From: Candidatus Zhuqueibacterota bacterium
GTDB taxonomy: Bacteria > Zhuqueibacterota > Zhuqueibacteria > Thermofontimicrobiales > Thermofontimicrobiaceae
Direction: 5' to 3'
Length of the DNA stretch: 64,000 bases
NCBI GenBank assembly: GCA_049322915.1
Contig: JBMOPW010000032.1
Span: forward strand, 128,001 to 192,000
The notes under the pieces were generated by a model. That model had not been told where the DNA came from and searched no databases. It worked only from the letters and a program-made list of their open reading frames with translations. Positions 980-19,664 of this stretch are shown here, in pieces (position 1 is the first letter of the stretch; every line of letters starts with the position of its first letter). The position numbers and the translations under genes are program-made.

Positions 980-1723
980 ATGGAGTTGGAACTTATCAGC
1001 GTCGAAAGGGCCGATACGCTGATGCAGCAACTGGCCGAACTTCGGCAGGCCGATCTGGTTCCGGATATGGCGCTGATTCTCGCCCATCCAGCTACTCTGG
1101 CTGTTGGCGCGCGGAAGTTGCAGCCGCAGGATCTGCTCCGGCCGCTCGAATTTTTTCAATCCCGGGGAATTGGCTTGATTCAATCGATTCGAGGTGGTGG
1201 TTTGACCTATCACTGGCCGGGCCAGATTGTCTGCTACCCGGTGATGAAGCTGGCGCCGCAGGAGCAGAATATTGCCATGTACGTGTATCGGCTGGAGGAG
1301 GTTGGTCTTCGGACTTTGAGAGAATTCGGCATTGAGGCAAGTCGCAAACGGGAGAAAGCGGCGCAGATTGGTCTGTGGCTTGGCAATCGGAAAATTGCGT
1401 CGATGGGGATTCATGTCTCGCGCTGGGTGACGAGCTATGGATTTGCATTGAATGTGAGCGGAAATGCTGAGGCAGCGGATTTTATTCGCCCCTGCGGTCT
1501 CGATGGTGTGAAGCTTATTACCATGAGCGAGGTTTTAGGTTACGATCCGGGGCGACGAGCGGTGACGACGTCATTGCTGCGCCAGTTTGAGCAGGTGTTT
1601 GATAGGAAAATCCACGCGATGACGATGAGGAATTTGACCTGGCTGAATCAGGAGAATGCGGACCATGATATATCTTTCAGGAATGCAAATCTCAGTTCGT
1701 CTTTTAGTGAGAGCCTGGATTGA
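980..1723 (+). CDS. lipB: Lipoyl(octanoyl) transferase
   Basis: RGGGLTYHWPGQ, KIASMG, GFALNV and IRPCGL motifs; directly upstream of PDH genes; start uncertain (911 or 980). Confidence 0.88.
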   Translation: MELELISVERADTLMQQLAELRQADLVPDMALILAHPATLAVGARKLQPQDLLRPLEFFQSRGIGLIQSIRGGGLTYHWPGQIVCYPVMKLAPQEQNIAMYVYRLEEVGLRTLREFGIEASRKREKAAQIGLWLGNRKIASMGIHVSRWVTSYGFALNVSGNAEAADFIRPCGLDGVKLITMSEVLGYDPGRRAVTTSLLRQFEQVFDRKIHAMTMRNLTWLNQENADHDISFRNANLSSSFSESLD

Positions 1724-1755
1724 TGTACGTTGAAATAAAAAAAAGAGGAGTCAAT

Positions 1756-2817
1756 ATGAAACCAAAACTGATTCAGATATTGGATGAAAATGGAACTTGC
1801 GATGAAAAAGCAGTCGCCGATTTGACGACCGAAGATATGATCAACATGTATCGGCTGATGAATTTGACGCGAATCTGGAACGATAAAGCGCTGAGCCTGC
1901 AACGCCAGGGACGACTTGGCACGATGGGTTCTGTCCGGGGCCAGGAAGCATCCAACGTGGGCATGGCCTTGCCGCTGCAATCCAATGACTGGTTTGTGCC
2001 GGCGTTCCGGGAATACGGCGCCCTGTTCGCGCTGGGAATTTCGCTGCGGGACCAACTGATGTTTTGGGGCGGCGATGAACGCGGAGCGAGGATTCCGGAA
2101 AACCTCCGGGTGACGCCCACGTCAATCATTGTTGCGTCGCATTTGCCGCATGCTGTGGGCATTGCGCTCGCCGCAAAATTGAAAGGCGAGAAAAGCGTGG
2201 CATTGTCATCATCCGGCGATGGCTCCACTTCGGAAGGCGATTTTCATGAAGCGCTGAATATGGCCGCTGTGTTTAAGGCGCCGGTGGTCTTTGTCATTCA
2301 AAACAACCACTGGGCTATCTCGTTGCCATTCAGCAAACAGACAGCCACAGCGACGATTTCCGAAAAGGCAGCCGCTTACGCCATCGAGGGAGTGCGAGTC
2401 GATGGAAATGATGTGTTTGCAGTGTACACGACAGTGAAAAAATATGTCGAATTGGCCAGAAAAAATCACACGCCGGCATTGATCGAGCTGGTGACGTATC
2501 GAATGGGCGACCATACGACTGCCGATGACGCCACGAGGTATCGCGCGCCGGAGGCGCTGGCCGAATGGGAGAAAAAGGACCCCATCGACCGCTTGAAAAT
2601 TTATTTGATGAACAGTCGCGGCTGGACTGAAGAGAACGATAAAAAACTCATCGAGCAGTGCGCGCAGGAAGTGGATCAAGCGGTGAAAGAGTATGAGGCC
2701 ATGGAGCCAGCCGATCCTGCGGACATGTTCAAATATATTTATAAAGATATGCCCTGGCATTTGAAAGAAGAGATGGAAGAAGTGAGAGAATTGAATCGGA
2801 AAGGAGGGGTGAAATAA
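1756..2817 (+). CDS. pdhA: Pyruvate/2-oxoacid dehydrogenase E1 alpha subunit
   Basis: LQRQGRLG, GQEA, ThDP motif GDGSTSEGDFHEALN...NN, YRMGDHTTADD; RBS AGAGGAG before ATG 1756. Confidence 0.93.
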   Translation: MKPKLIQILDENGTCDEKAVADLTTEDMINMYRLMNLTRIWNDKALSLQRQGRLGTMGSVRGQEASNVGMALPLQSNDWFVPAFREYGALFALGISLRDQLMFWGGDERGARIPENLRVTPTSIIVASHLPHAVGIALAAKLKGEKSVALSSSGDGSTSEGDFHEALNMAAVFKAPVVFVIQNNHWAISLPFSKQTATATISEKAAAYAIEGVRVDGNDVFAVYTTVKKYVELARKNHTPALIELVTYRMGDHTTADDATRYRAPEALAEWEKKDPIDRLKIYLMNSRGWTEENDKKLIEQCAQEVDQAVKEYEAMEPADPADMFKYIYKDMPWHLKEEMEEVRELNRKGGVK

Positions 2818-3794
2818 TGGCAAGAAAATCAATGGTTCAGGCGATCAATGAAGCATTATTTCAGAAAATGGAAGACGACAAGACCGTCGTTGTGCTGGGA
2901 GAAGACGTTGGCGTTGACGGCGGCGTATTCCGGGTGACCCAGGGGCTGATCGAAAAATTCGGTCCCGAGCGCGTGATGGACACGCCATTGGCGGAATCAT
3001 CGATCATGGGCGCCAGCGTGGGCATGGCCATCAATGGCCTGAAACCTGTCGTTGAAATTCAGTTCATGGGATTCATCTACCAGTCGTTCGATCAGGTACT
3101 GGGGCATGTTGCCAGATACCGGCACCGGAGTCAGGGGCGATATGGGATGTCGCTGGTCGTGCGCGCTCCGTATGGGGCCGGCGTTCGGGCGCTGGAGCAT
3201 CATTCCGAAAGCACGGAAGCCAATTTCGCGCATTTGCCCGGTCTGAAAGTGGTCATTCCTTCCAATCCGGTGGACGCCAAGGGCCTGCTCATTTCGGCGA
3301 TTGAAGACCCGGATCCGGTGATTTTCCTGGAGCCAAAACGACTGTACCGCTTGAAAAAAGTTGAAGTCCCGGACGAAATGTACCGGACGCCCATCGGCGT
3401 GGCCGATATTCCGCGCGAGGGGAAAGATATCACGCTCATCGGTTGGGGGGGCATGATGCCAATTTGTCTCGATGCGGCGGAACACGTCAGCAAAGAAGGC
3501 GTGGACGCCGAAGTGATCGACCTGCGGACGATTGTGCCGTTTGACATTCAGAAAATCACAGCCTCGGTTAAAAAGACCGGCCGGCTGATCATTGTTCAGG
3601 AAGCACCGCGCTCGTTTGGTGTGGCTGCTGAGCTGGCCGCTCAGGTCGGGGAGAGAAGCCTGCTCCACTTGTTGGCGCCAGTTCGCCGCGTCACCGGCTA
3701 CGACATCATCCCGCCATTGTCAAAATTGGAAGATTACAATTATCCCAATGTGGAACGAGTCGTACAGGCCATTCATAAAACTATGGAGTTTTGA
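2817..3794 (+). CDS. pdhB: Pyruvate/2-oxoacid dehydrogenase E1 beta subunit
   Basis: GEDVGVDGGVFRVT, DTPLAES, EIQF, HHSES, EVIDLRT; TAATG overlap with pdhA. Confidence 0.93.
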   Translation: MARKSMVQAINEALFQKMEDDKTVVVLGEDVGVDGGVFRVTQGLIEKFGPERVMDTPLAESSIMGASVGMAINGLKPVVEIQFMGFIYQSFDQVLGHVARYRHRSQGRYGMSLVVRAPYGAGVRALEHHSESTEANFAHLPGLKVVIPSNPVDAKGLLISAIEDPDPVIFLEPKRLYRLKKVEVPDEMYRTPIGVADIPREGKDITLIGWGGMMPICLDAAEHVSKEGVDAEVIDLRTIVPFDIQKITASVKKTGRLIIVQEAPRSFGVAAELAAQVGERSLLHLLAPVRRVTGYDIIPPLSKLEDYNYPNVERVVQAIHKTMEF

Positions 3795-3795
3795 C

Positions 3796-5064
3796 ATGAG
3801 ATATGTATTTCGATTACCGGACGTCGGTGAAGGCATTCATGAAGCGGAAATAATAAGCTACGAAGCGAAGATCGGGGATGTGGTCAAAGCCGATCAGACA
3901 ATCATAAAAATTGAGACGGACAAGGCGGTGGTGACGCTGCCTTCTCCGGTGGACGGCAGGATATTAGAAATCCCACGCAATCCAGGGGACGTCATCGCTG
4001 TGGGGGAGCCGCTCATCATTCTGGATTCAGTGCAGGCCGGAGAGGAAATAACGGCAAAACCGGAAGCGTCCGTCCCGGAAGAGGGGCATGCGCCGGCCGT
4101 GAAAATTGTGCGGGAACCGGTCCTGACCGATAAGCCAGCGACCGCGCGCCGTGCACTGGCGACGCCGCACACCCGATATCTGGCGCGGGAATTGGGCGTC
4201 GATATCAACACCGTGGCCGGTTCCGGGCCAGGCGGGCGCATTACCGACGATGATGTCCGGCGCGCCGTCAAACAGTCGCCGGCGCCAGGTCCGAAGATTC
4301 CGCGGGCAGCGGCGGTCACCCATGAACCGTCGACGCTTGGGTTCGATTTTGAGAAGTATGGACATGTCCGCCGGGAGCCGTTGAAAGGCATTCGCAAGCG
4401 AATCGCTGAAGTCATGGTCCGATCGTACTCGACCATCCCCCATGTGTCGCACACGGACGAAGTGGATGTCACCGATCTGTTCGAGGTGCTGAAAAGGCAG
4501 AAATCAATGGCGGAGCAGCGGGGTGTGAAATTGACCATCACTGCTTTTATCGCAAAAGCTGTGGTATCAGCGCTGCAGGCGTTTCCCGAGGTCAATAGCT
4601 CGCTGGATGAAGAGAGCGGCGATCTGGTGTACAAGGATTACTACCATCTTGGCATCGCAACGGACACCGACCAGGGATTGATGGTGCCGGTGGTGAAAAA
4701 TGCAGACACCAGGAGCATCCTTCAAATCGCCGAGGCGATTCAAAAACTGGCGACTCAGGCGCGCAACCGCGAGATCGACCTGGAAGACCTCCGCGGCGGA
4801 ACGTTCACCATCACTAACCCCGGTGGCATTGGCGGCATTCACGCAACGCCGATCATCCAGCATCCCCAGGTGGCTATTCTGGGCGTGCTGGCGGCGCGAA
4901 AGAAGCCGGTGGTCAAAGACGATCAGATTGTCATCCGCACCATGATGCCGTTGGTCGTTTCTTTCGACCATCGCATTCTGGACGGCGCAGTCGTGGCGCG
5001 TTTCCTCAATCACATCATCCATCTGCTGGAAGATCCTATGCGCATGCTGGTGGATGTTATTTGA
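3796..5064 (+). CDS. pdhC: Dihydrolipoamide acyltransferase E2 (single lipoyl domain)
   Basis: FRLPDVGEGIHEAEI, lipoyl lysine ETDKA, E3-binding GSGPGGRI, catalytic FDHRILDG; start ATG 3796. Confidence 0.93.
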   Translation: MRYVFRLPDVGEGIHEAEIISYEAKIGDVVKADQTIIKIETDKAVVTLPSPVDGRILEIPRNPGDVIAVGEPLIILDSVQAGEEITAKPEASVPEEGHAPAVKIVREPVLTDKPATARRALATPHTRYLARELGVDINTVAGSGPGGRITDDDVRRAVKQSPAPGPKIPRAAAVTHEPSTLGFDFEKYGHVRREPLKGIRKRIAEVMVRSYSTIPHVSHTDEVDVTDLFEVLKRQKSMAEQRGVKLTITAFIAKAVVSALQAFPEVNSSLDEESGDLVYKDYYHLGIATDTDQGLMVPVVKNADTRSILQIAEAIQKLATQARNREIDLEDLRGGTFTITNPGGIGGIHATPIIQHPQVAILGVLAARKKPVVKDDQIVIRTMMPLVVSFDHRILDGAVVARFLNHIIHLLEDPMRMLVDVI

Positions 5065-5124
5065 AACCAGGCACGCCTGAAACGGGTATCAATAGCGATT
5101 CATGCCAGTCCCCAATGAAACAGA

Positions 5125-5284
5125 ATGGGGCTGATTTGAAAAAAAAAAAATTGCTCAGCCACGACGTCTCAAAGGCACGATGAATAAAATGACCTCTTCG
5201 TGTAGCGTTGTGGCAAGACGACAAGCCTGAATGGCAACGAAAATTCTCTTTAACCCGGAACCTTGAAACCTGGAGCCTGATCAG
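5125..5284. repeat. Dispersed non-coding repeat, copy A
   Basis: 5237-5257 is the exact reverse complement of 63860-63880; 5182-5203 matches 63914-63935 at 21/22; 5155-5190 resembles 19835-19870. Confidence 0.85.
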
Positions 5285-5357
5285 TTTCAAAACAAAAAAT
5301 CAGGTAACAGCGACGGCATCGGTGGATTTTCAGTAAAAATTTTGTGAAATCAATTGT

Positions 5358-5753
5358 ATGGTGCTCATCGATTTAAGAAATAAATTACAGACAAGCTCCC
5401 TTCGATACATGGCGGGCGGCCTCATTGCCCTCGTGCTCTTTTTGAGCACGGGTCATGATTTATTCCATAATCACCAGCCCGATTTCGAGAATCACGAAGA
5501 CTGCCCGGTGTATCAATTCCTCGTTGTGCTGGGCTCCGTCGGAATCATCGGCGCGCTCGTTCTGCAGCATTTTCTGAATCGAGTCACCATTTTAGAGTTT
5601 CATTCCGACGCGATTATTTATGGCGTCGAGCGGTTAACCCCGGTTATCCGCGGCCCTCCGGATACAGCGACTGTTGTTTTTTTGAATGAACATGCGCTTA
5701 AGTGTTTCAGAACGAATAACTATCCGGAGGTGTTTTATGAAAGTAAGTCTTAA
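5358..5753 (+). CDS. Small membrane protein, DUF2946/CruR-like candidate leader peptide (His/Cys loop between two hydrophobic segments, RGPP motif)
   Basis: GHDLFHNHQPDFENHEDCPVY between two hydrophobic stretches; IRGPP with RGPP at 5649-5660; upstream of a metal-uptake lipoprotein and TonB receptor. Confidence 0.65.
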   Translation: MVLIDLRNKLQTSSLRYMAGGLIALVLFLSTGHDLFHNHQPDFENHEDCPVYQFLVVLGSVGIIGALVLQHFLNRVTILEFHSDAIIYGVERLTPVIRGPPDTATVVFLNEHALKCFRTNNYPEVFYESKS

Positions 5754-6198
5754 ATTTCTTGTTATTGCGCTTGCATTATCGGCATTAATTTTTGGTTGTG
5801 ATAAAGACAATCCAGTTGACGATGATACTCACAGTGAACATGCCGAGGCCGTTGGCCTTGTCATTACGCAGGATAGCAGTGAAATTGTTCGGTACGAAAG
5901 CGGCACGGTCACGGGTAAAATTACCGTGAAAGTCGGTGCAGAAACGCCGTTGCTTTTTGTTCAGTTCATCGATGAACATGACGGCGACTTATTTACGCCG
6001 GACATTGAACACCATTCGCTGGCTTTCACCGTCGCCAATGTCGCCATTGCCGAGGTCATCCAGAATGCTAAAGATGGTTTGGGCAAATTTTACATTCAGG
6101 GGAAATCAGCCGGCTCTACGACGATTGAAATAAAAATCCTGCATGAAGACCATGCAGATTTTGTTTCAGCGCATATCCCGGTTGAGGTGACATTATAA
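5737..6198 (+). CDS. His-rich lipoprotein, putative metal-binding partner of the TonB receptor
   Basis: GGAGG RBS at 5726-5730; lipobox LIFGC; HSEHAE, EHHS and HEDHADF motifs; beta-rich Ig-like composition. Confidence 0.75.
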   Translation: MKVSLKFLVIALALSALIFGCDKDNPVDDDTHSEHAEAVGLVITQDSSEIVRYESGTVTGKITVKVGAETPLLFVQFIDEHDGDLFTPDIEHHSLAFTVANVAIAEVIQNAKDGLGKFYIQGKSAGSTTIEIKILHEDHADFVSAHIPVEVTL

Positions 6199-6216
6199 TT
6201 CACTGAGTCGATCATG

Positions 6217-6252
6217 GTTCTCCCTCATTCCGAATCCGGAATGGGGGAGAAC
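6217..6252. other. Intergenic stem-loop without U-tract (mRNA stabiliser or processing site)
   Basis: gttctccctcattccg-aatc-cggaatgggggagaac, 16-bp stem with one G-U pair. Confidence 0.6.
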
Positions 6253-6274
6253 TGTACTGCAAGGAGTATCGTCA

Positions 6275-8509
6275 ATGAAATCGTTTTTTTATCGCATCGC
6301 ACTGATTCTCAGTGTGATGATGATATGCCGGATCGGCTTCGCGATGGCATCTGAAGAACATTCCCCCGGAACGGGTGTGTTTGCAGGTCAGGTTATCGAT
6401 TCAGAAACCGGTGAACCGGTCGGGTTTGTCTATTTGTTGATTGAAGAGATTCATTTCTGGCAGCGGGTTGGAAGCGACGGTGTGTTTCGTTTTGAAAATA
6501 TACCCGCCGGCATTCATGCGGTAAAAACCTATCGGTTGGGATATAAAGAAGCTGTGGAGCAGGTCGCCATCGTAGAGGGGAAGGTTACAAACAAAACGTT
6601 CCGACTGGCGTTGGCGCCCATTCTGATTGGCGAGGTCATTGTTTCGGCGCACCGGGTGCATGGCGATTCCACCCTGGAAAATCCGGATATTGTCGTTGCC
6701 GATCGCAAGCTCAGGCAAAATCTGGGCATGACCATAGCCAAGACGCTTGAAAATGAACCGGGTCTGGATAAAATCTGTATGGGACCGGCTCCGGCGCGAC
6801 CGGTGCTGCGCGGTCTGGCTGGCGACCGGCTGCTGCTTCTCGAAGATGGCGAGCGGACCGGCGATCTTTCAGCGACGTCAGCGGATCACGCTGTATCCAT
6901 TGATCCCATGACCACCGAACGCATCGAAGTGATACGCGGGCCGGAAGCCATGATCTATGGCTCCAATGTCATGGCCGGCGTGATCAATGTCCAGCGGGAA
7001 TCGATACCGCGCGTGCGGCCGGAGAAAATAACCGGTTCGGTCACGTACCACGGAGAGAGCGTCACGAATGGAAGCGCTGGCGCGTTGGAATTGCGCGCGC
7101 CGGTCGGGCCAATGGCCATGCGATGGGATGCGAGTGTGCGCTCGGCCGGCACTGTGCAAACGCCGGTTGGCCCACTGCAAAACACGGAAATTCAAACGCT
7201 GAACAGCTCAATCGGGTTGAGTCTGGTTCGAAGCTGGGGTCATGCCGGAGTTGCCGGCGGTTGGTATGATTCGGAGTACGGCATTCCCCCTGATCCGATT
7301 GCCGGACACCCGAGCGGTGTGGATATTGACATGCTGCGGCAGCATGTAGCGACAGAAGGTCTGTTCAATGTCCCTTCGTCCATGATTCGGCACGTATACG
7401 TGAAGCATCAGTACTCCCGCTACCAGCACCAGGAGATTGAAGCATCGGGCATCATCGGCATGGAATTCGGGGTGGTGACGCATCATGCCACAGCGATTTT
7501 GCACTTCTGCGAATGCGGCCCATTGTACAATGCGCGAATCGGCATCTGGGGTGAATCGCGCGATTATGCGTCAGGCGGGCTCACGTTCACGCCGGATACC
7601 AGAGAGTCAGCCGTGGCCGTTTATCTGTACGATGAACTCATCCGCGGCCGCTGGTCATTCAATGGCGCGATTCGGGCGGACGGCAAAACAGTGCGTCCCG
7701 AAGCGAGCTATGTGACGCCCCATGTCGGCCACATCCGAACGCGCGACTTCGCCGGTATCTCCGGGGCGGTTTCCGGACACTACCATGTGAAACCGGACTT
7801 GATGCTGGGCGCTTCGGTCATCCGAACGTTTCGCGCTCCCGGGGTGGAGGAATTATTCTCGGAAGGGCCGCATCTGGCAGCCTATTCCTATGAAGTCGGC
7901 AATGCCGACCTGGACGAGGAGACCGGCATTGGATTCGAGCTCTTTGGCGAATACGAGTCCGGTCACGGGAAAATTCGGGCAGCAGTCTTTCGGAATGAAT
8001 TGCAGAATTACATTTTTCCGAGAAACACCGGAGAACGAAGCTGGCGTCGCGCCGATTTATTTCAATACCAGTACAGCGGATTCCATGCGCTGATGACCGG
8101 TTACGAGGTGTCGCTGGATTGGGCGCCGGCGAATTGGCTGTCGTTTTCAGCTCAGGTTCAGTATGTGAAAGGGCAATTGTTAGAAGAAGACCAGCCTATT
8201 CCCCGGATGCCGCCACTATCCGGCAAGGTGGAAATGCGCTACCATCGCGGGCCATTATCCATCATTGTGGATTCCAAAGGCGCTGACAGACAAAACAGGT
8301 TGGATCAGTTCGAACTGCCGACGGAGGGGTATCTCATTCAGGATACGACCGTGCAATATTTATTGCCAAAGGGGAAGCTGTTGCATACCCTTTCGCTGAC
8401 ACTGGAAAATATCGGGAATGCAGAATACCGCAGGCATTTGAATCGCGTCAAGGAAATCATGCCCGAGCCTGGGCGCAATGTTCGGCTCCTGTACAAGGTT
8501 TTCTTTTGA
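6275..8509 (+). CDS. TonB-dependent outer-membrane receptor with N-terminal carboxypeptidase-regulatory-like domain; ZnuD-like metal transporter
   Basis: Signal peptide; GQVIDSETGEPV; plug motif RPVLRGL...DHAV...ERIEVIRGP; RAPGVEELFSEGPH; C-terminal PGRNVRLLYKVFF. Confidence 0.9.
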   Translation: MKSFFYRIALILSVMMICRIGFAMASEEHSPGTGVFAGQVIDSETGEPVGFVYLLIEEIHFWQRVGSDGVFRFENIPAGIHAVKTYRLGYKEAVEQVAIVEGKVTNKTFRLALAPILIGEVIVSAHRVHGDSTLENPDIVVADRKLRQNLGMTIAKTLENEPGLDKICMGPAPARPVLRGLAGDRLLLLEDGERTGDLSATSADHAVSIDPMTTERIEVIRGPEAMIYGSNVMAGVINVQRESIPRVRPEKITGSVTYHGESVTNGSAGALELRAPVGPMAMRWDASVRSAGTVQTPVGPLQNTEIQTLNSSIGLSLVRSWGHAGVAGGWYDSEYGIPPDPIAGHPSGVDIDMLRQHVATEGLFNVPSSMIRHVYVKHQYSRYQHQEIEASGIIGMEFGVVTHHATAILHFCECGPLYNARIGIWGESRDYASGGLTFTPDTRESAVAVYLYDELIRGRWSFNGAIRADGKTVRPEASYVTPHVGHIRTRDFAGISGAVSGHYHVKPDLMLGASVIRTFRAPGVEELFSEGPHLAAYSYEVGNADLDEETGIGFELFGEYESGHGKIRAAVFRNELQNYIFPRNTGERSWRRADLFQYQYSGFHALMTGYEVSLDWAPANWLSFSAQVQYVKGQLLEEDQPIPRMPPLSGKVEMRYHRGPLSIIVDSKGADRQNRLDQFELPTEGYLIQDTTVQYLLPKGKLLHTLSLTLENIGNAEYRRHLNRVKEIMPEPGRNVRLLYKVFF

Positions 8510-8596: not shown

Positions 8597-10024
8597 ATGG
8601 TAGTCGGAGATTTTACGCAGAAAGTGGACACGTTGGTGATTGGCGCCGGACCCGGCGGCTATGTCGCTGCCATTCGGGCGGCGCAATTGGGCCAGGAAGT
8701 CACGCTTGTAGAAAAAGATCACCTGGGAGGTGTCTGTCTCAACTGGGGATGCATCCCTTCCAAAGCGATGATTGAAGTGTCCGGGCTGAAACAGCGCATT
8801 GCCCGCGCAGCGGACATGGGGCTGATGACCGGCGAAGTTACGGTCGATCTGGCCAAACTGCATCACTGGAAAGATGATGTTGTTCTCAGGCTCAGAAAAG
8901 GAATTGAAGGCTTGCTCTCTAAAAATGGCGTGGACGTTGTTCATGGAAATGCGAGCTTCACGGATCCCGGTCACATTCTGGTGGATACCCGGGAGGGGTT
9001 GCAGCGCTTCGAATTCAAAAACGTCGTCATCGCCACCGGCTCGCATCCTATTCAACTCCCCGGCGTTCCGTTTGACGGCAGGGTTATCATCGATTCTTCG
9101 GACGCGCTGTCTTTGGCGGAAGTGCCGAAAAGAATGGTCGTCATTGGCGCAGGTTCGGTGGGAATTGAACTGGGAACTGTCTATCGAAAATTGGGCGCGG
9201 ACGTCACGATTCTGGAGAACCAGACTGCATTGCTGATGATGCTCGAACCGGAGGTGTCCCGAATTCTTGAGAAGTCGCTGAAGAAAATCGGAATCGATGT
9301 GTTGTTGGGCAGCGAGTTGAAATCGGTGCAGGTGAAAAATGATCGGGCCGAGCTCCATTATGTTCAAAATGGCGCGGCCAAAATTCTCGAAGCCGATAAG
9401 GTGCTGGTTGCAGTGGGCCGGCGCCCCAATACAGCCACACTCGGTCTCGGCAAATTGGGACTGACAACCGATGACCGCGGCTTCATCCCAGTGAACAGCC
9501 GGCTGGAGACCGGCGTGAAGGGCGTGTACGCCATTGGCGATGCGGTTGCCGGCCTCATGTTGGCGCATCGCGCATCGCACATGGGGAAAATCGCAGCAGA
9601 GGCTATTTCGAACCGACTTGCAGAGTTCGACAACCTGGCCATACCCGGCGTCATTTTCAGCGACCCTGAAATTGCGACGGTGGGAATGACTCAGGCTGAT
9701 GCGGAGAACCAGGGCTACACCGTGAAAGCCGGCGCATTTCCGTTCCGAGCCCTGGGCCGTGCAATGACCATCGGCGAGACCGAAGGGCTGACGAAAGTCG
9801 TCTCGGACGGGCAGACCGGAACTGTGCTGGGTGTGCATATCATCGGTCCGCACGCATCGGATCTGATTGCTGAAGGCGCGCTTGCCGTGGAATCGGCTTC
9901 CCACGTCGATGACTTGATGCTGACCATTCACGCGCATCCCACATTGACCGAAGGAGTCGGCGAAGCCGCCGAAGCCGTGGAAAATAAGGCGATCCATATT
10001 TTTAATTCGCCGATGAAACAATGA
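8597..10024 (+). CDS. lpdA: Dihydrolipoamide dehydrogenase E3
   Basis: GAGPGGY, redox disulfide GGVCLNWGCIPSK, GRRPN, HAHPTLTE. Confidence 0.95.
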   Translation: MVVGDFTQKVDTLVIGAGPGGYVAAIRAAQLGQEVTLVEKDHLGGVCLNWGCIPSKAMIEVSGLKQRIARAADMGLMTGEVTVDLAKLHHWKDDVVLRLRKGIEGLLSKNGVDVVHGNASFTDPGHILVDTREGLQRFEFKNVVIATGSHPIQLPGVPFDGRVIIDSSDALSLAEVPKRMVVIGAGSVGIELGTVYRKLGADVTILENQTALLMMLEPEVSRILEKSLKKIGIDVLLGSELKSVQVKNDRAELHYVQNGAAKILEADKVLVAVGRRPNTATLGLGKLGLTTDDRGFIPVNSRLETGVKGVYAIGDAVAGLMLAHRASHMGKIAAEAISNRLAEFDNLAIPGVIFSDPEIATVGMTQADAENQGYTVKAGAFPFRALGRAMTIGETEGLTKVVSDGQTGTVLGVHIIGPHASDLIAEGALAVESASHVDDLMLTIHAHPTLTEGVGEAAEAVENKAIHIFNSPMKQ

Positions 10025-18857: not shown

Positions 18858-19664
18858 TTAATGGACGAAATGAAAGAATCGCAGACAATCTAAAAAATCA
18901 TCGCTTGTATAACTGATCGTGAATTCTCCTTTTTTGACGGCGCCAGGGTACCATGCAGCGTGAGTGGCTCTGTCCTTCTTCTTGAAATCGATTTCAATCT
19001 CAAAAGGCGGAGCCACGATAAATGGCCGCATCGCTGGCAGTTGCTGGATGGCGCGTTGAACACCTTCCTGAATTTTCCGCTGCGCCAGCCGAGGATGTAT
19101 ATTGAGGCAGGCTTCTCCGATTCCCTGTTTGACTGCAACCGTTTCAATTTCCGGAATGAGTTCTCTGGCTTGTTGGCAAATGGCTTCATCGCCGGAGAGA
19201 AAGATCACAGGCACTGAATAATAGCCGGCAATGAGCGCATTCCATCCGAATTCAGGCAATGTCAGTCCATTGACGCGAAGGTCTAAAATTGCGCCGCTCA
19301 TGGTGTGAGCCAGCGTACCGTTCGACGTCATCGCTTTGGCGTGATACCCCACAAAACAAACCGCGTCGAAACTGGAGTCGAGGCCCTCCATCATGCTGAA
19401 AGGCTGGACAGACCAGGCGCGCAGCAATCGAGCGTTTTCATTCAATAAATCCGGGATGATATTGCGGGCGGTTCCGTGCGCATCCCGAACGACAATATCC
19501 GTTGCGCCCAACGCAATCGCCCCTTGAATCGCGGCATTGACCTCTTCCGTCATGATTTTTCTGAAGTATTGATAGTCTGTATGAGGGCCGGTCGTTTCGT
19601 CCCAATCAATGACTCCGGTGACGCCCTCCATATCCGCTGAGATAAAAATTTTTAATGGATCCAT
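18858..19664 (-). CDS. dppA: D-aminopeptidase, peptidase M55 family
   Basis: IFISADMEG, VRDAHG, MMEGLD, VGYH, LAHT, SGD motifs. Confidence 0.9.
   Translation of the reverse strand: MDPLKIFISADMEGVTGVIDWDETTGPHTDYQYFRKIMTEEVNAAIQGAIALGATDIVVRDAHGTARNIIPDLLNENARLLRAWSVQPFSMMEGLDSSFDAVCFVGYHAKAMTSNGTLAHTMSGAILDLRVNGLTLPEFGWNALIAGYYSVPVIFLSGDEAICQQARELIPEIETVAVKQGIGEACLNIHPRLAQRKIQEGVQRAIQQLPAMRPFIVAPPFEIEIDFKKKDRATHAAWYPGAVKKGEFTISYTSDDFLDCLRFFHFVH

Follow-up and report, generated by a model that had tools for sequence, protein, structure and literature searches.

The subject of this study is a small open reading frame (ORF) in a 64,000-nucleotide stretch of DNA from a Candidatus Zhuqueibacterota bacterium, hereafter called the window. 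The ORF encodes a predicted leader peptide of 131 residues and is followed on the same strand by genes for a lipoprotein and a TonB-dependent receptor (Table 1). An earlier interpretation made from the letters alone (the sequence-only reading) had described a transmembrane segment, a loop, a second transmembrane segment, a spacer and an RGPP tetrapeptide ahead of these two genes, and all of these features lie where it placed them. It had also likened the leader to CruR, the DUF2946 protein of Bordetella pertussis (Bp2923) that places a TonB-dependent transporter under copper control. Judged by their sequences, the leader peptides are a genuine, conserved and so far unannotated family of which the window copy is a clear member. 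The family probably acts as nascent-chain sensors of a metal, likely zinc, in which a ribosome stalled at RGPP would expose the next gene's Shine-Dalgarno sequence (SD).

The start of the leader is probably the ATG at 5358 rather than M18 (5409), because the closest homologue, with 81% identity (P0002), has Ala at the position of M18 and yet keeps MV(L/F)ID..RNKLQTS upstream of it. From this start the elements follow in the order of a basic N-terminus, a hydrophobic stretch (residues 18-32), a His-rich acidic loop, a second hydrophobic stretch (residues 54-73), a 24-residue spacer and RGPP, with 27-28 residues between the end of the second hydrophobic segment and the prolines of RGPP. The loop between the two hydrophobic stretches is HNHQPDFENHEDCP, which runs from H33 to Y52 and includes H37, H39, D42, H46, C49 and P50. 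An AlphaFold2 (AF2) model of the leader, with a mean predicted local distance difference test score (pLDDT) of 80, has helices at residues 13-36 and 50-92 joined by a loop at residues 37-49. The leader protein matched no Pfam or NCBIfam family at E<=1, and no Pfam family at E<=10 either.

Table 1. Features of the leader and its operon (positions in the window)
Feature	Position	Strand	Basis
Leader ORF, 131 aa	5358..5753	+	ORF list
Hydrophobic segment 1, residues 18-32; presumed signal anchor (N-in) following basic residues	5409..5453	+	Translation, AF2 helix 13-36
Ligand motif H37-N-H39-x2-D42-x3-H46-x-D-C49-P50; loop at the hairpin tip, presumed to bind metal	5466..5507	+	Alignments A1/A2, AF2 loop 37-49
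Hydrophobic segment 2, residues 54-73	5517..5576	+	Translation; maximum 19-residue hydropathy 2.14
RGPP arrest-type motif, R98 G99 P100 P101, codons CGC GGC CCT CCG	5649..5660	+	Translation, alignment A1
5' arm of the SD-sequestering helix, GGC CCU CCG GAU A (Gly99-Pro-Pro-Asp)	5652..5664	+	Minimum free energy (MFE) fold, duplex energy
T7 homopolymer run just past RGPP	5677..5683	+	Sequence compared with the C-terminus of P0002
3' arm of the helix, UAUCCGGAGG and GUU separated by one bulged U; contains the SD of the lipoprotein gene, GGAGG (5726-5730)	5721..5734	+	MFE fold
Lipoprotein gene, 153 aa, lipobox Cys21; proposed first regulated gene	5737..6198	+	ORF list, alignment A3
TonB-dependent receptor gene, 744 aa, ZnuD-like	6275..8509	+	Pfam CarbopepD_reg_2, Plug, TonB_dep_Rec_b-barrel

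A lone RGPP is unremarkable, since two R[AG]PP tetrapeptides occur in the six frames of the 64-kb window and about two are expected by our own estimate. The significance of the motif therefore rests on its conservation and on the pairing of its codons with the SD of the next gene. The other copy, an RGPP at 19379, lies two codons ahead of the stop of a 41-codon open stretch with no obvious start or context, and it is probably a chance occurrence.

A word-indexed protein search returned only the leader itself and P0002, and an exhaustive phmmer search of 1.84 billion cluster representatives (E<=1e-3) gave 38 matches, 37 of which are real; the remaining match (P0006) was rejected as a spurious repeat protein. 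In an alignment of 39 sequences (A1), H37, H39, H46, C49 and P101 are invariant, N38, D42, P50, R98 and P100 are conserved in at least 90%, and the stretch from the Cys to the R-x-P-P (RxPP) motif is ungapped in every sequence except P0021. The C-terminal motif of these 39 sequences is RAPP in 23, RGPP in 10, RSPP in three, and KAPP and HAPP in one each, with one sequence having none. H37, H39, D42, H46, C49 and P50 are invariant in a second alignment of 88 sequences (A2). The conserved ligand set is H37, H39, D42, H46 and C49, and H33 is not conserved. The sequence-only reading had counted one Cys and four His in the leader; the single Cys stands for the sensor part, but one of the four His falls outside the conserved set and a second Cys, C116, occurs in the C-terminal tail.

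An independent scan at the level of DNA covered 185,579 species genomes with the degenerate codons of H-N-H-x2-D-x3-H-x-[DEN]-C-P and contained no term for RxPP. It found 93 loci, in 77 of which [RK][AGS]PP follows 59-65 residues past the first His; the other 16 comprise 13 unrelated chance matches and three ORFs cut by contig ends. The spacing from the first His to the motif falls into a few classes (62 residues in 31 loci, 60 in 29, 65 in 11, 61 in four, and 59 and 63 in one each), and the interval from the Cys motif to RxPP is 44-46 residues in 64 of the 77 loci and 49 in 11. A lack of conservation of RGPP and the His cluster had been named as what would speak against the sequence-only reading, and the alignments and the 77 of 93 loci agree that homologues keep both the tetrapeptide and the His/Cys cluster. 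The segment that joins the ligand loop to RxPP is unconserved in sequence and fixed in length, and this is the pattern expected if the ribosomal tunnel and exit set the geometry.

Other traits vary among the 77 relatives. A second hydrophobic segment is present in 60 of them, variable in sequence and conserved in length. A single Cys is found in 57 and C-P-x-C in 20, and 11 of these 20 lack the second hydrophobic segment and look CruR-like in topology. This would fit a distant homology with DUF2946 or, alternatively, convergence on one geometry. A sub-family with C-P-A-C and a spacing of 65 residues (L030, L035, L047, L053, L067, L069, L070, L073, L082, L083 and L088) consists of a single anchor and an acidic exported tail, without a second hydrophobic segment, and is closer to CruR in topology; its leaders stand ahead of ZnuA operons in all members with enough flank. 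Lys replaces Arg (N-K-A/S-P-P) in 12 of the 77 loci, which belong to a Melioribacteraceae/Ignavibacteria clade (for example L013, L014, L029, L033, L034, L037-L039, L041, L055 and L074).

The leaders are carried by Melioribacteraceae and other Ignavibacteria, KSB1, Calditrichia, Neomarinimicrobiota, Zixibacteria and Leptospirales, and further by bins labelled Cytophagia, Omnitrophica, Nitrospirota, Acidobacteriota and others, at least ten lineages in all. Named homologues are all annotated 'hypothetical protein', and none of 20 profile matches has a precomputed Pfam domain. A search of 88 leaders against NCBIfam gave only weak matches of the hydrophobic-segment type; a lead to the 'LIC10965 family' was dropped, as it concerned three members with a best E of 0.0011 and did not involve the Leptospirales members. 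DUF2946, against which the sequence-only reading had advised a search with a hidden Markov model, is not among the matches listed (25 of the 68 Pfam families matching any of 39 family members). By hidden Markov model the leader is not a DUF2946 member, and the 45-residue spacing of CruR is nevertheless kept.

The sequence-only reading had recommended folding the RNA around 5640-5745, and the fold bears directly on how the leader may act. The MFE structure of 5630-5760 (-38.4 kcal/mol, z = -3.2) pairs the RGPP codons with the SD of the lipoprotein gene through 10 contiguous Watson-Crick pairs (5655-5664 with 5721-5730) that cover GGAGG, plus three more pairs. By our own estimate the chance that a given 10-mer meets its complement within ~130 nt upstream is ~1e-4. 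The RGPP-SD duplex has an energy of -20.3 kcal/mol, compared with a mean of -8.3 and a best value of -12.9 for 40 control windows of the same leader. The 5' arm would be covered by a ribosome that has stalled with Pro100 in its P site. When a footprint reaching from 15 nt upstream to 17 nt downstream of where the Pro100 codon begins was forced to be unpaired (stall mask), the mean unpaired probability of the SD was 0.58, compared with 0.10 for the free RNA and 0.10 for a control mask placed 40 nt upstream, and this is the largest stall-mask effect of all loci examined.

Across the family, the R codon and the downstream start are separated by a median of 93 nt. In 22 of 70 loci none of the 41 windows compared pairs better with the SD than the RxPP window does. 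In 55 de-duplicated loci the cognate RxPP-SD pairs average -11.67 kcal/mol against -9.72 kcal/mol for non-cognate pairs, a value that none of 20,000 permutations reached. The cognate advantage of -1.95 kcal/mol for the RxPP window compares with -0.55 to +0.41 kcal/mol (p 0.03-0.92) for nine decoy windows of the same leaders. In one clade CCUCC:GGAGG is replaced by a pairing of CCC-UUU-CAR (Pro-Phe-stop or Gln) and UUGAAAGGG, which keeps the architecture with different sequences. Gains in SD accessibility of 0.2 or more were obtained with the stall mask in 12 of 62 loci and with the control mask in one of 62 (Wilcoxon p = 0.005). Numbers were too small for wobble covariation between the first Pro codon and the GGNGG core to be informative. 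The SD helix is well supported at the window locus and, family-wide, is a tendency and not a rule. The leaders in most loci have no visible SD of their own and the genes behind them usually have a strong one (GGAGG, GGAG or AAGGG), which is consistent with an SD that is present in order to be masked. An Rfam scan of 4900-6400 (E<=1) gave two sub-threshold chance matches, neither of them in the leader.

The reading frame of the leader stays open for 30 codons beyond RGPP, over the GGAGG and the ATG (5737-5739) of the lipoprotein gene, to a TAA at 5751-5753. The sequence-only reading had drawn attention to this overrun and had suggested that read-through over the ribosome-binding site gates downstream expression. 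The overrun is present in the window, but neither it nor the tail that it encodes, C116 included, is conserved. P0002 ends 10 codons past RGPP, and the tails of the 77 relatives range from 1 to 42 residues with a median of three codons; they are no longer than eight codons in 71 loci and no longer than 12 in 73, and only four exceed 12. Tails of 39, 42 and 31 codons overrun the start of a TonB receptor gene in L025, L048 and L065, and the residues that these three tails share merely read out conserved nucleotides of the SD region. In the sister loci L004, L008, L052, L059 and L084 the stop lies directly behind RAPPF. It seems that the stop can drift freely. One base added to the T7 run just past RGPP would bring a TGA at 5687-5689 into frame and end the ORF near the end of P0002, and the window tail may have arisen from a natural or assembly indel in this run. 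Alternatively, the tail may be tolerated because few ribosomes would pass RGPP. As the gate, a helix that sequesters the SD and has the RGPP codons as its other arm is likelier than read-through.

The first gene behind the leader encodes a lipoprotein whose predicted structure is a beta-sandwich (AF2, pLDDT 85). In an alignment of nine syntenic homologues (A3), C21, D82, H136, D138, H139 and D141 are invariant, and a semi-conserved D-x-H-x-H-A-E lies near the N-terminus. The lipoprotein had no sequence match in Pfam, NCBIfam or the PDB, and a fold search of the PDB found only generic immunoglobulin-like or S-layer domains with template-modelling scores below 0.5. An Atlas search returned clusters of unnamed lipoproteins and, as a lead only, one weak structural match to archaeal ZnuA-family proteins. 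The lipoprotein is a candidate metal-binding partner of the receptor, a role that the invariant lipobox Cys and H136-x-D138-H139-x-D141 cluster fit. The receptor itself had been called ZnuD-like, and this description agrees with our searches. Its best NCBIfam model is ZnuD (NF038289) and its closest solved relative is ZnuD (4rdr, E 7.6e-28), followed by OprC (1.5e-9). By sequence it is ZnuD-like and not a ZnuD equivalog, since its NCBIfam score of 143.8 bits is far under the cut-off of 950.

Metal importers also follow the leader elsewhere in the family. The first downstream ORF was surveyed in 64 loci and the second in most of these, and a metal importer (a TonB receptor or ZnuA/ABC-3) is the first or second downstream gene in 57 of the 64. 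A TonB receptor stands directly behind the leader in 20 loci, including L016. The arrangement of the window, a small protein without Pfam match followed by a TonB receptor, was found in all seven loci tested for it. An unknown protein of 390-525 aa is followed by ZnuA (PF01297), and usually then by ABC-3 and an ATP-binding cassette (ABC) ATPase, in 29 loci, and one further locus has an unknown protein with ABC-3 as the second ORF. The best NCBIfam model for the ZnuA-family binding proteins is the zinc protein AztC (92-124 bits, cut-off 350). No efflux gene was seen among the downstream ORFs scanned.

Of the seven other loci, L046 has directly behind its leader a gene (5655-7220) for a beta-propeller of 522 aa, which NCBIfam matches best to AztD, a zinc metallochaperone (E 7.6e-13, 47.9 bits, cut-off 400), and L051 has the same architecture. 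The protein between leader and ZnuA that has 390-460 aa (~415) belongs to no Pfam or NCBIfam family and is found in L006, L029, L030, L032, L058 and ~23 further loci (for example L029:3518-4771). It could be an unrecognised outer-membrane zinc channel.

The leader heads its operon, as judged from upstream neighbours that are mostly unrelated housekeeping genes (52 loci). A FUR-family gene ends 6 nt before the leader in L016 (4476-4895), ABC-3 permease genes lie upstream in L028 (4513-5319) and L050 (4029-4850), and a protein with a TonB C-terminal domain is encoded upstream in L061 (4240-4857). A k-mer enrichment analysis of the 200 nt upstream of 71 leaders, aimed at a Zur box or another shared operator, found only A/T-rich words and no common palindrome. 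In the window, genes read by eye as those for the E1-alpha, E1-beta and E2 subunits of a 2-oxoacid dehydrogenase and for dihydrolipoyl dehydrogenase (GGVCLNWGCIPSK motif) flank the operon at 1720-5064 and 8597-10024. This reading of the neighbours suggests that the leader-lipoprotein-receptor operon was inserted into a 2-oxoacid dehydrogenase cluster.

How might the leader control the genes behind it? The sequences themselves display the motifs described above with their conservation and spacing, the context of the operon and the complementarity in the RNA, and from them we infer the arrest itself, zinc as the metal, the direction of its effect, and the helix, in preference to transcription termination, as the output. 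The leader would act in cis, as a helical hairpin in the inner membrane with a His3-Asp-Cys site at its tip. A ribosome translating it would stall at RGPP with Pro100 in the P site and Pro101 in the A site, cover ~5640-5672 and so keep the RGPP codons (5652-5664) off the SD region (5721-5734), and the freed SD would allow translation of the lipoprotein and ZnuD-like receptor operon. Once the nascent loop had taken up its metal, with Zn(II) the likeliest, the hairpin would fold or enter the membrane, pull on the chain and release the arrest; the ribosome would depart, the helix would re-form and the uptake genes would be off. A distance of 27-28 residues from the peptidyl-transferase centre, that of the end of the second hydrophobic segment, is one at which membrane insertion exerts force on a nascent chain in translocon force-profile work.

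Taken as a whole, this account of an arrest-peptide sensor of the CruR or CutF type (CutF is a copper sensor of Rhodobacter capsulatus), likely for zinc, in which stalling exposes the SD, has in our judgment a probability of roughly 0.6. Its parts differ in strength. The leader is very likely an arrest-peptide regulator, and there is a good chance that the SD helix is the output at the window locus. That metal turns the operon off, and not on, is reasonably likely. Zinc has slightly better than even odds of being the metal: it is the most likely one because the receptor is ZnuD-like, the ABC systems are like ZnuA, AztC and AztD, and His, Cys and Asp ligands suit Zn(II), and Mn(II) is disfavored because the Cys is invariant. 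The broader proposal of the sequence-only reading, a CruR-like leader that responds to a metal other than copper and controls a TonB operon, gains support from the conservation of the motif and from the TonB, ZnuA and ABC-3 context; the relation to DUF2946, the weight given to the tail and the read-through gate are the parts that need correction.

Several observations weigh against this account. The leader has no match to the DUF2946 model, and no SD is visible in the window sequence ahead of the leader start at 5358. A ribosome that escaped the arrest would translate 30 codons through the SD and AUG of the lipoprotein gene, opening the helix, and could thereby couple translation and blur the OFF state. 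The family mean of SD accessibility shifts modestly under the stall mask, from 0.316 to 0.393 compared with 0.325 under the control mask, and the effect is strong only in the 12 loci mentioned above. The advantage of the RxPP window within a leader is partly compositional, its GC content being 0.55 compared with 0.33-0.45 in the controls, and CCUCC complements GGAGG by the nature of Pro-Pro codons. The RxPP-SD helix may be confined to part of the family, the window leader among them. With regard to zinc, the manganese protein MntC is the second-best model for the binding proteins, all of which score below the NCBIfam cut-offs; the receptor of L002 scores best to a copper receptor model; and two ZnuA-family proteins that were translated both lack a His-rich loop. 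The arrest competence of KAPP and KSPP leaders is undocumented, and 'KAPP' does not occur in the main text of a published catalogue of arrest motifs (PMC12992588). Arrest, metal binding and regulation are all deduced from sequence, synteny and folding energies.

One alternative keeps the same arrest-peptide sensor and gives it a transcriptional output: stalling would obstruct Rho, or an attenuator, in the interval between the leader and the gene behind it, and the pairing of RGPP codons with the SD would have no part in control. CruR, the sole tested leader of a TonB-receptor operon, acts through Rho (PMC9426467), and both the modest effect on SD accessibility across the family and the automatic complementarity of CCUCC and GGAGG are compatible with such an output. 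However, the spacer is short, AT-rich and not richer in C than in G (A20 C11 G18 T27 in the 76 nt of the window; family means of 15.7% C and 15.4% G), unlike the C-rich rut region of cruR, and a terminator scan called no intrinsic terminator between 5660 and 5737; promoter-like sites were uninformative. The complementarity is also locus-specific and reaches beyond the core, and the 10 + 3 pairs of the window respond to the footprint mask, so a transcriptional output seems unlikely. A sensor of the opposite sign, in which metal on the exported loop hinders translocation, prolongs the stall and turns on genes for handling or detoxification under metal excess, appears less likely again. CutF does combine an SD-shielding stem with a Pro-rich stall that copper enhances (PMC9973294; bioRxiv 10.1101/2025.02.05.636593), but the genes downstream here encode importers (TonB receptors or ZnuA, ABC-3 and ABC ATPase), whose induction by excess metal would be maladaptive, and the scanned ORFs include no efflux gene.

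It is also conceivable, and about as improbable as a CutF-like sign, that the leader is a small protein that is stable in the membrane, for instance a metallochaperone or an additional subunit for uptake, in which RxPP is a structural or degradation signal and exerts no arrest control. The confident helical hairpin of the AF2 model with its conserved ligand loop and the strict co-occurrence with uptake genes are what such a protein would display, and the stalling is a prediction. A loop-to-RxPP segment of fixed length and unconserved sequence, on the other hand, fits the geometry of the tunnel and not that of a folded subunit, and the length of the tail past RxPP varies between 1 and 42 residues. 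No tetrapeptides are avoided more strongly in ordinary proteins than RGPP and RAPP, the spacing is the same as in CruR, where it is functionally required, and the SD of the gene that follows has its pairing partner in the RxPP codons. That the ORF is a chance or misannotated frame without function might be suspected from its lack of a family annotation, from named homologues that are all 'hypothetical protein' and from the one RGPP per 64 kb expected by chance; the 37 protein homologues and 77 loci in at least ten lineages, with their invariant residues, fixed spacing and synteny, effectively refute it.

To our knowledge, bacterial control of zinc is transcriptional and is exerted by Zur and similar regulators, and copper, through CruR and CutF, is the only metal whose sensing by arrest peptides has been demonstrated by experiment. 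Thousands of RAPP and RGPP upstream ORFs (uORFs) precede TonB receptors according to the catalogue cited above (PMC12992588). If the present account is true, nascent-chain sensing of metals would extend from copper to, probably, zinc, and zinc would gain a protein-based post-transcriptional sensor. The locus defines a compact family that can be recognized from sequence alone; its ligand set is different, its context is that of zinc importers and its proposed RNA output is simple, and homologues that are now merely 'hypothetical protein' could be annotated. Somewhat tentatively, these unannotated two-helix leaders may be the first zinc-responsive nascent-peptide sensors, reading envelope zinc with a His3-Asp-Cys loop while still on the ribosome, controlling ZnuABC-type and ZnuD-like importers post-transcriptionally and using the arrest codons as the anti-SD strand. 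The family raises the questions of whether sensing by nascent chains extends to zinc, how metal makes the force that releases an RGPP arrest, and why the 45-residue spacing is held in common with DUF2946.

The window leader shares several features with CruR. Both are encoded by the small first gene of an operon with a TonB-dependent transporter downstream, and both have an N-terminal membrane or export segment, which in the window is suggested by the translation and the AF2 model (basic N-terminus, hydrophobic residues 18-32 and predicted helix). In CruR the CXXC and RAPP motifs lie 45 residues apart, a distance kept to within 1-2 residues, and the addition of five residues abolishes copper control (PMC9426467). 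In the window leader a Cys-containing metal motif is likewise followed by 45 residues (53-97, between Y52 and R98) and then by R-x-P-P. RAPP of CruR is a few residues from the C-terminus, and the relatives of the window leader resemble it in this (median tail of three residues, 12 or fewer in 73 of 77), but the RGPP of the window leader itself, an accepted equivalent of that core, is 30 residues from the stop. The arrest in CruR occurs with two Pro codons in the P and A sites (PMC12992588). The logic is likely to be shared as well, with metal relieving the arrest and uptake being turned off.

In other respects the two differ. The ligand motif here is HNH-x2-D-x3-H-x-D-C-P-x-x with a single Cys in the window (C49-P-V-Y52) in place of CXXC, and the window leader has a second hydrophobic segment. 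Control by CruR is Rho-dependent and uses a spacer of 162 bp that is GC-rich and has a C-rich rut region (PMC9426467), unlike the short AT-rich spacer with its SD-sequestering helix described here. The neighbors of the present family are Zn/Mn importers and not copper genes, and its hosts are Ignavibacteria, KSB1, Calditrichia and similar lineages, while those of CruR are Proteobacteria. In their account of CruR, its authors noted that no riboswitch had been described for Cu or Zn (PMC9426467).

CutF offers a precedent for the proposed output. In this system the C-terminal Pro-rich stall of a co-translationally exported sensor opens a stem-loop that shields an SD (PMC9973294). An SD-sequestering helix within reach of the stalled ribosome is present in the window and in only part of the family. 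In CutF, as described, a cleavable signal peptide, CxxxC and a PPP-type motif dependent on elongation factor P (EF-P) are used, none of which is the arrangement in the window leader, and copper increases stalling and induces a detoxifying oxidase, whereas importers lie downstream here. The anti-SD strand of the window is, unlike that of CutF, formed by the RGPP codons themselves. Clusters resembling CutF that have His-containing motifs and TonB neighbors exist, and according to the authors not all of them are copper-specific (PMC9973294; bioRxiv 10.1101/2025.02.05.636593). Neither zinc nor ZnuA is mentioned in the main text of PMC9973294; overlap of our family with its list of CutF-like proteins is unchecked.

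The family also fits the catalogue of RAPP and RGPP uORFs (Fujiwara et al. 2025, PMC12992588), in which a small secretory or membrane protein, encoded upstream of the regulated gene, has the core close to its C-terminal end. According to that work, RAPP and RGPP are the strongest arrest cores and are refractory to EF-P, RGPP is the most under-represented tetrapeptide in many phyla, and 'TonB-dependent receptor' is the top enriched downstream class, with 5450 cases for RAPP and 722 for AAPP. Part of its uORF list contains HNH-x2-D-x3-H-x-D-C-x-x-C sequences ahead of TonB receptors, and the family is therefore already present in published tables. None of the terms zinc, Znu, stem-loop and Shine-Dalgarno is used in the catalogue's main text, where neither the family and its motif nor the link to zinc importers nor the RxPP-codon:SD helix is described. 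A literature search on zinc uptake and stalling leaders had no such paper among the matches listed, and CutF, CruR and DUF2946 are absent from the first 300,000 of the ~606,000 characters of a 2024 review of bacterial metal homeostasis. Thus, the kind of system is already known from the metal-sensing arrest-peptide uORFs CruR and CutF and from the RAPP/RGPP catalogue, and for the motif of the family, the link to zinc and the RxPP-codon:SD helix we found no description.

The proposed output and the proposed release of the arrest have counterparts in SecM, MifM and VemP, in which a stalled ribosome disrupts an SD-sequestering helix and a pulling force during insertion or export releases the arrest. 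These three arrest peptides monitor the Sec or YidC machinery that they regulate, whereas the input proposed for the leader described here is a metal bound to the nascent loop.

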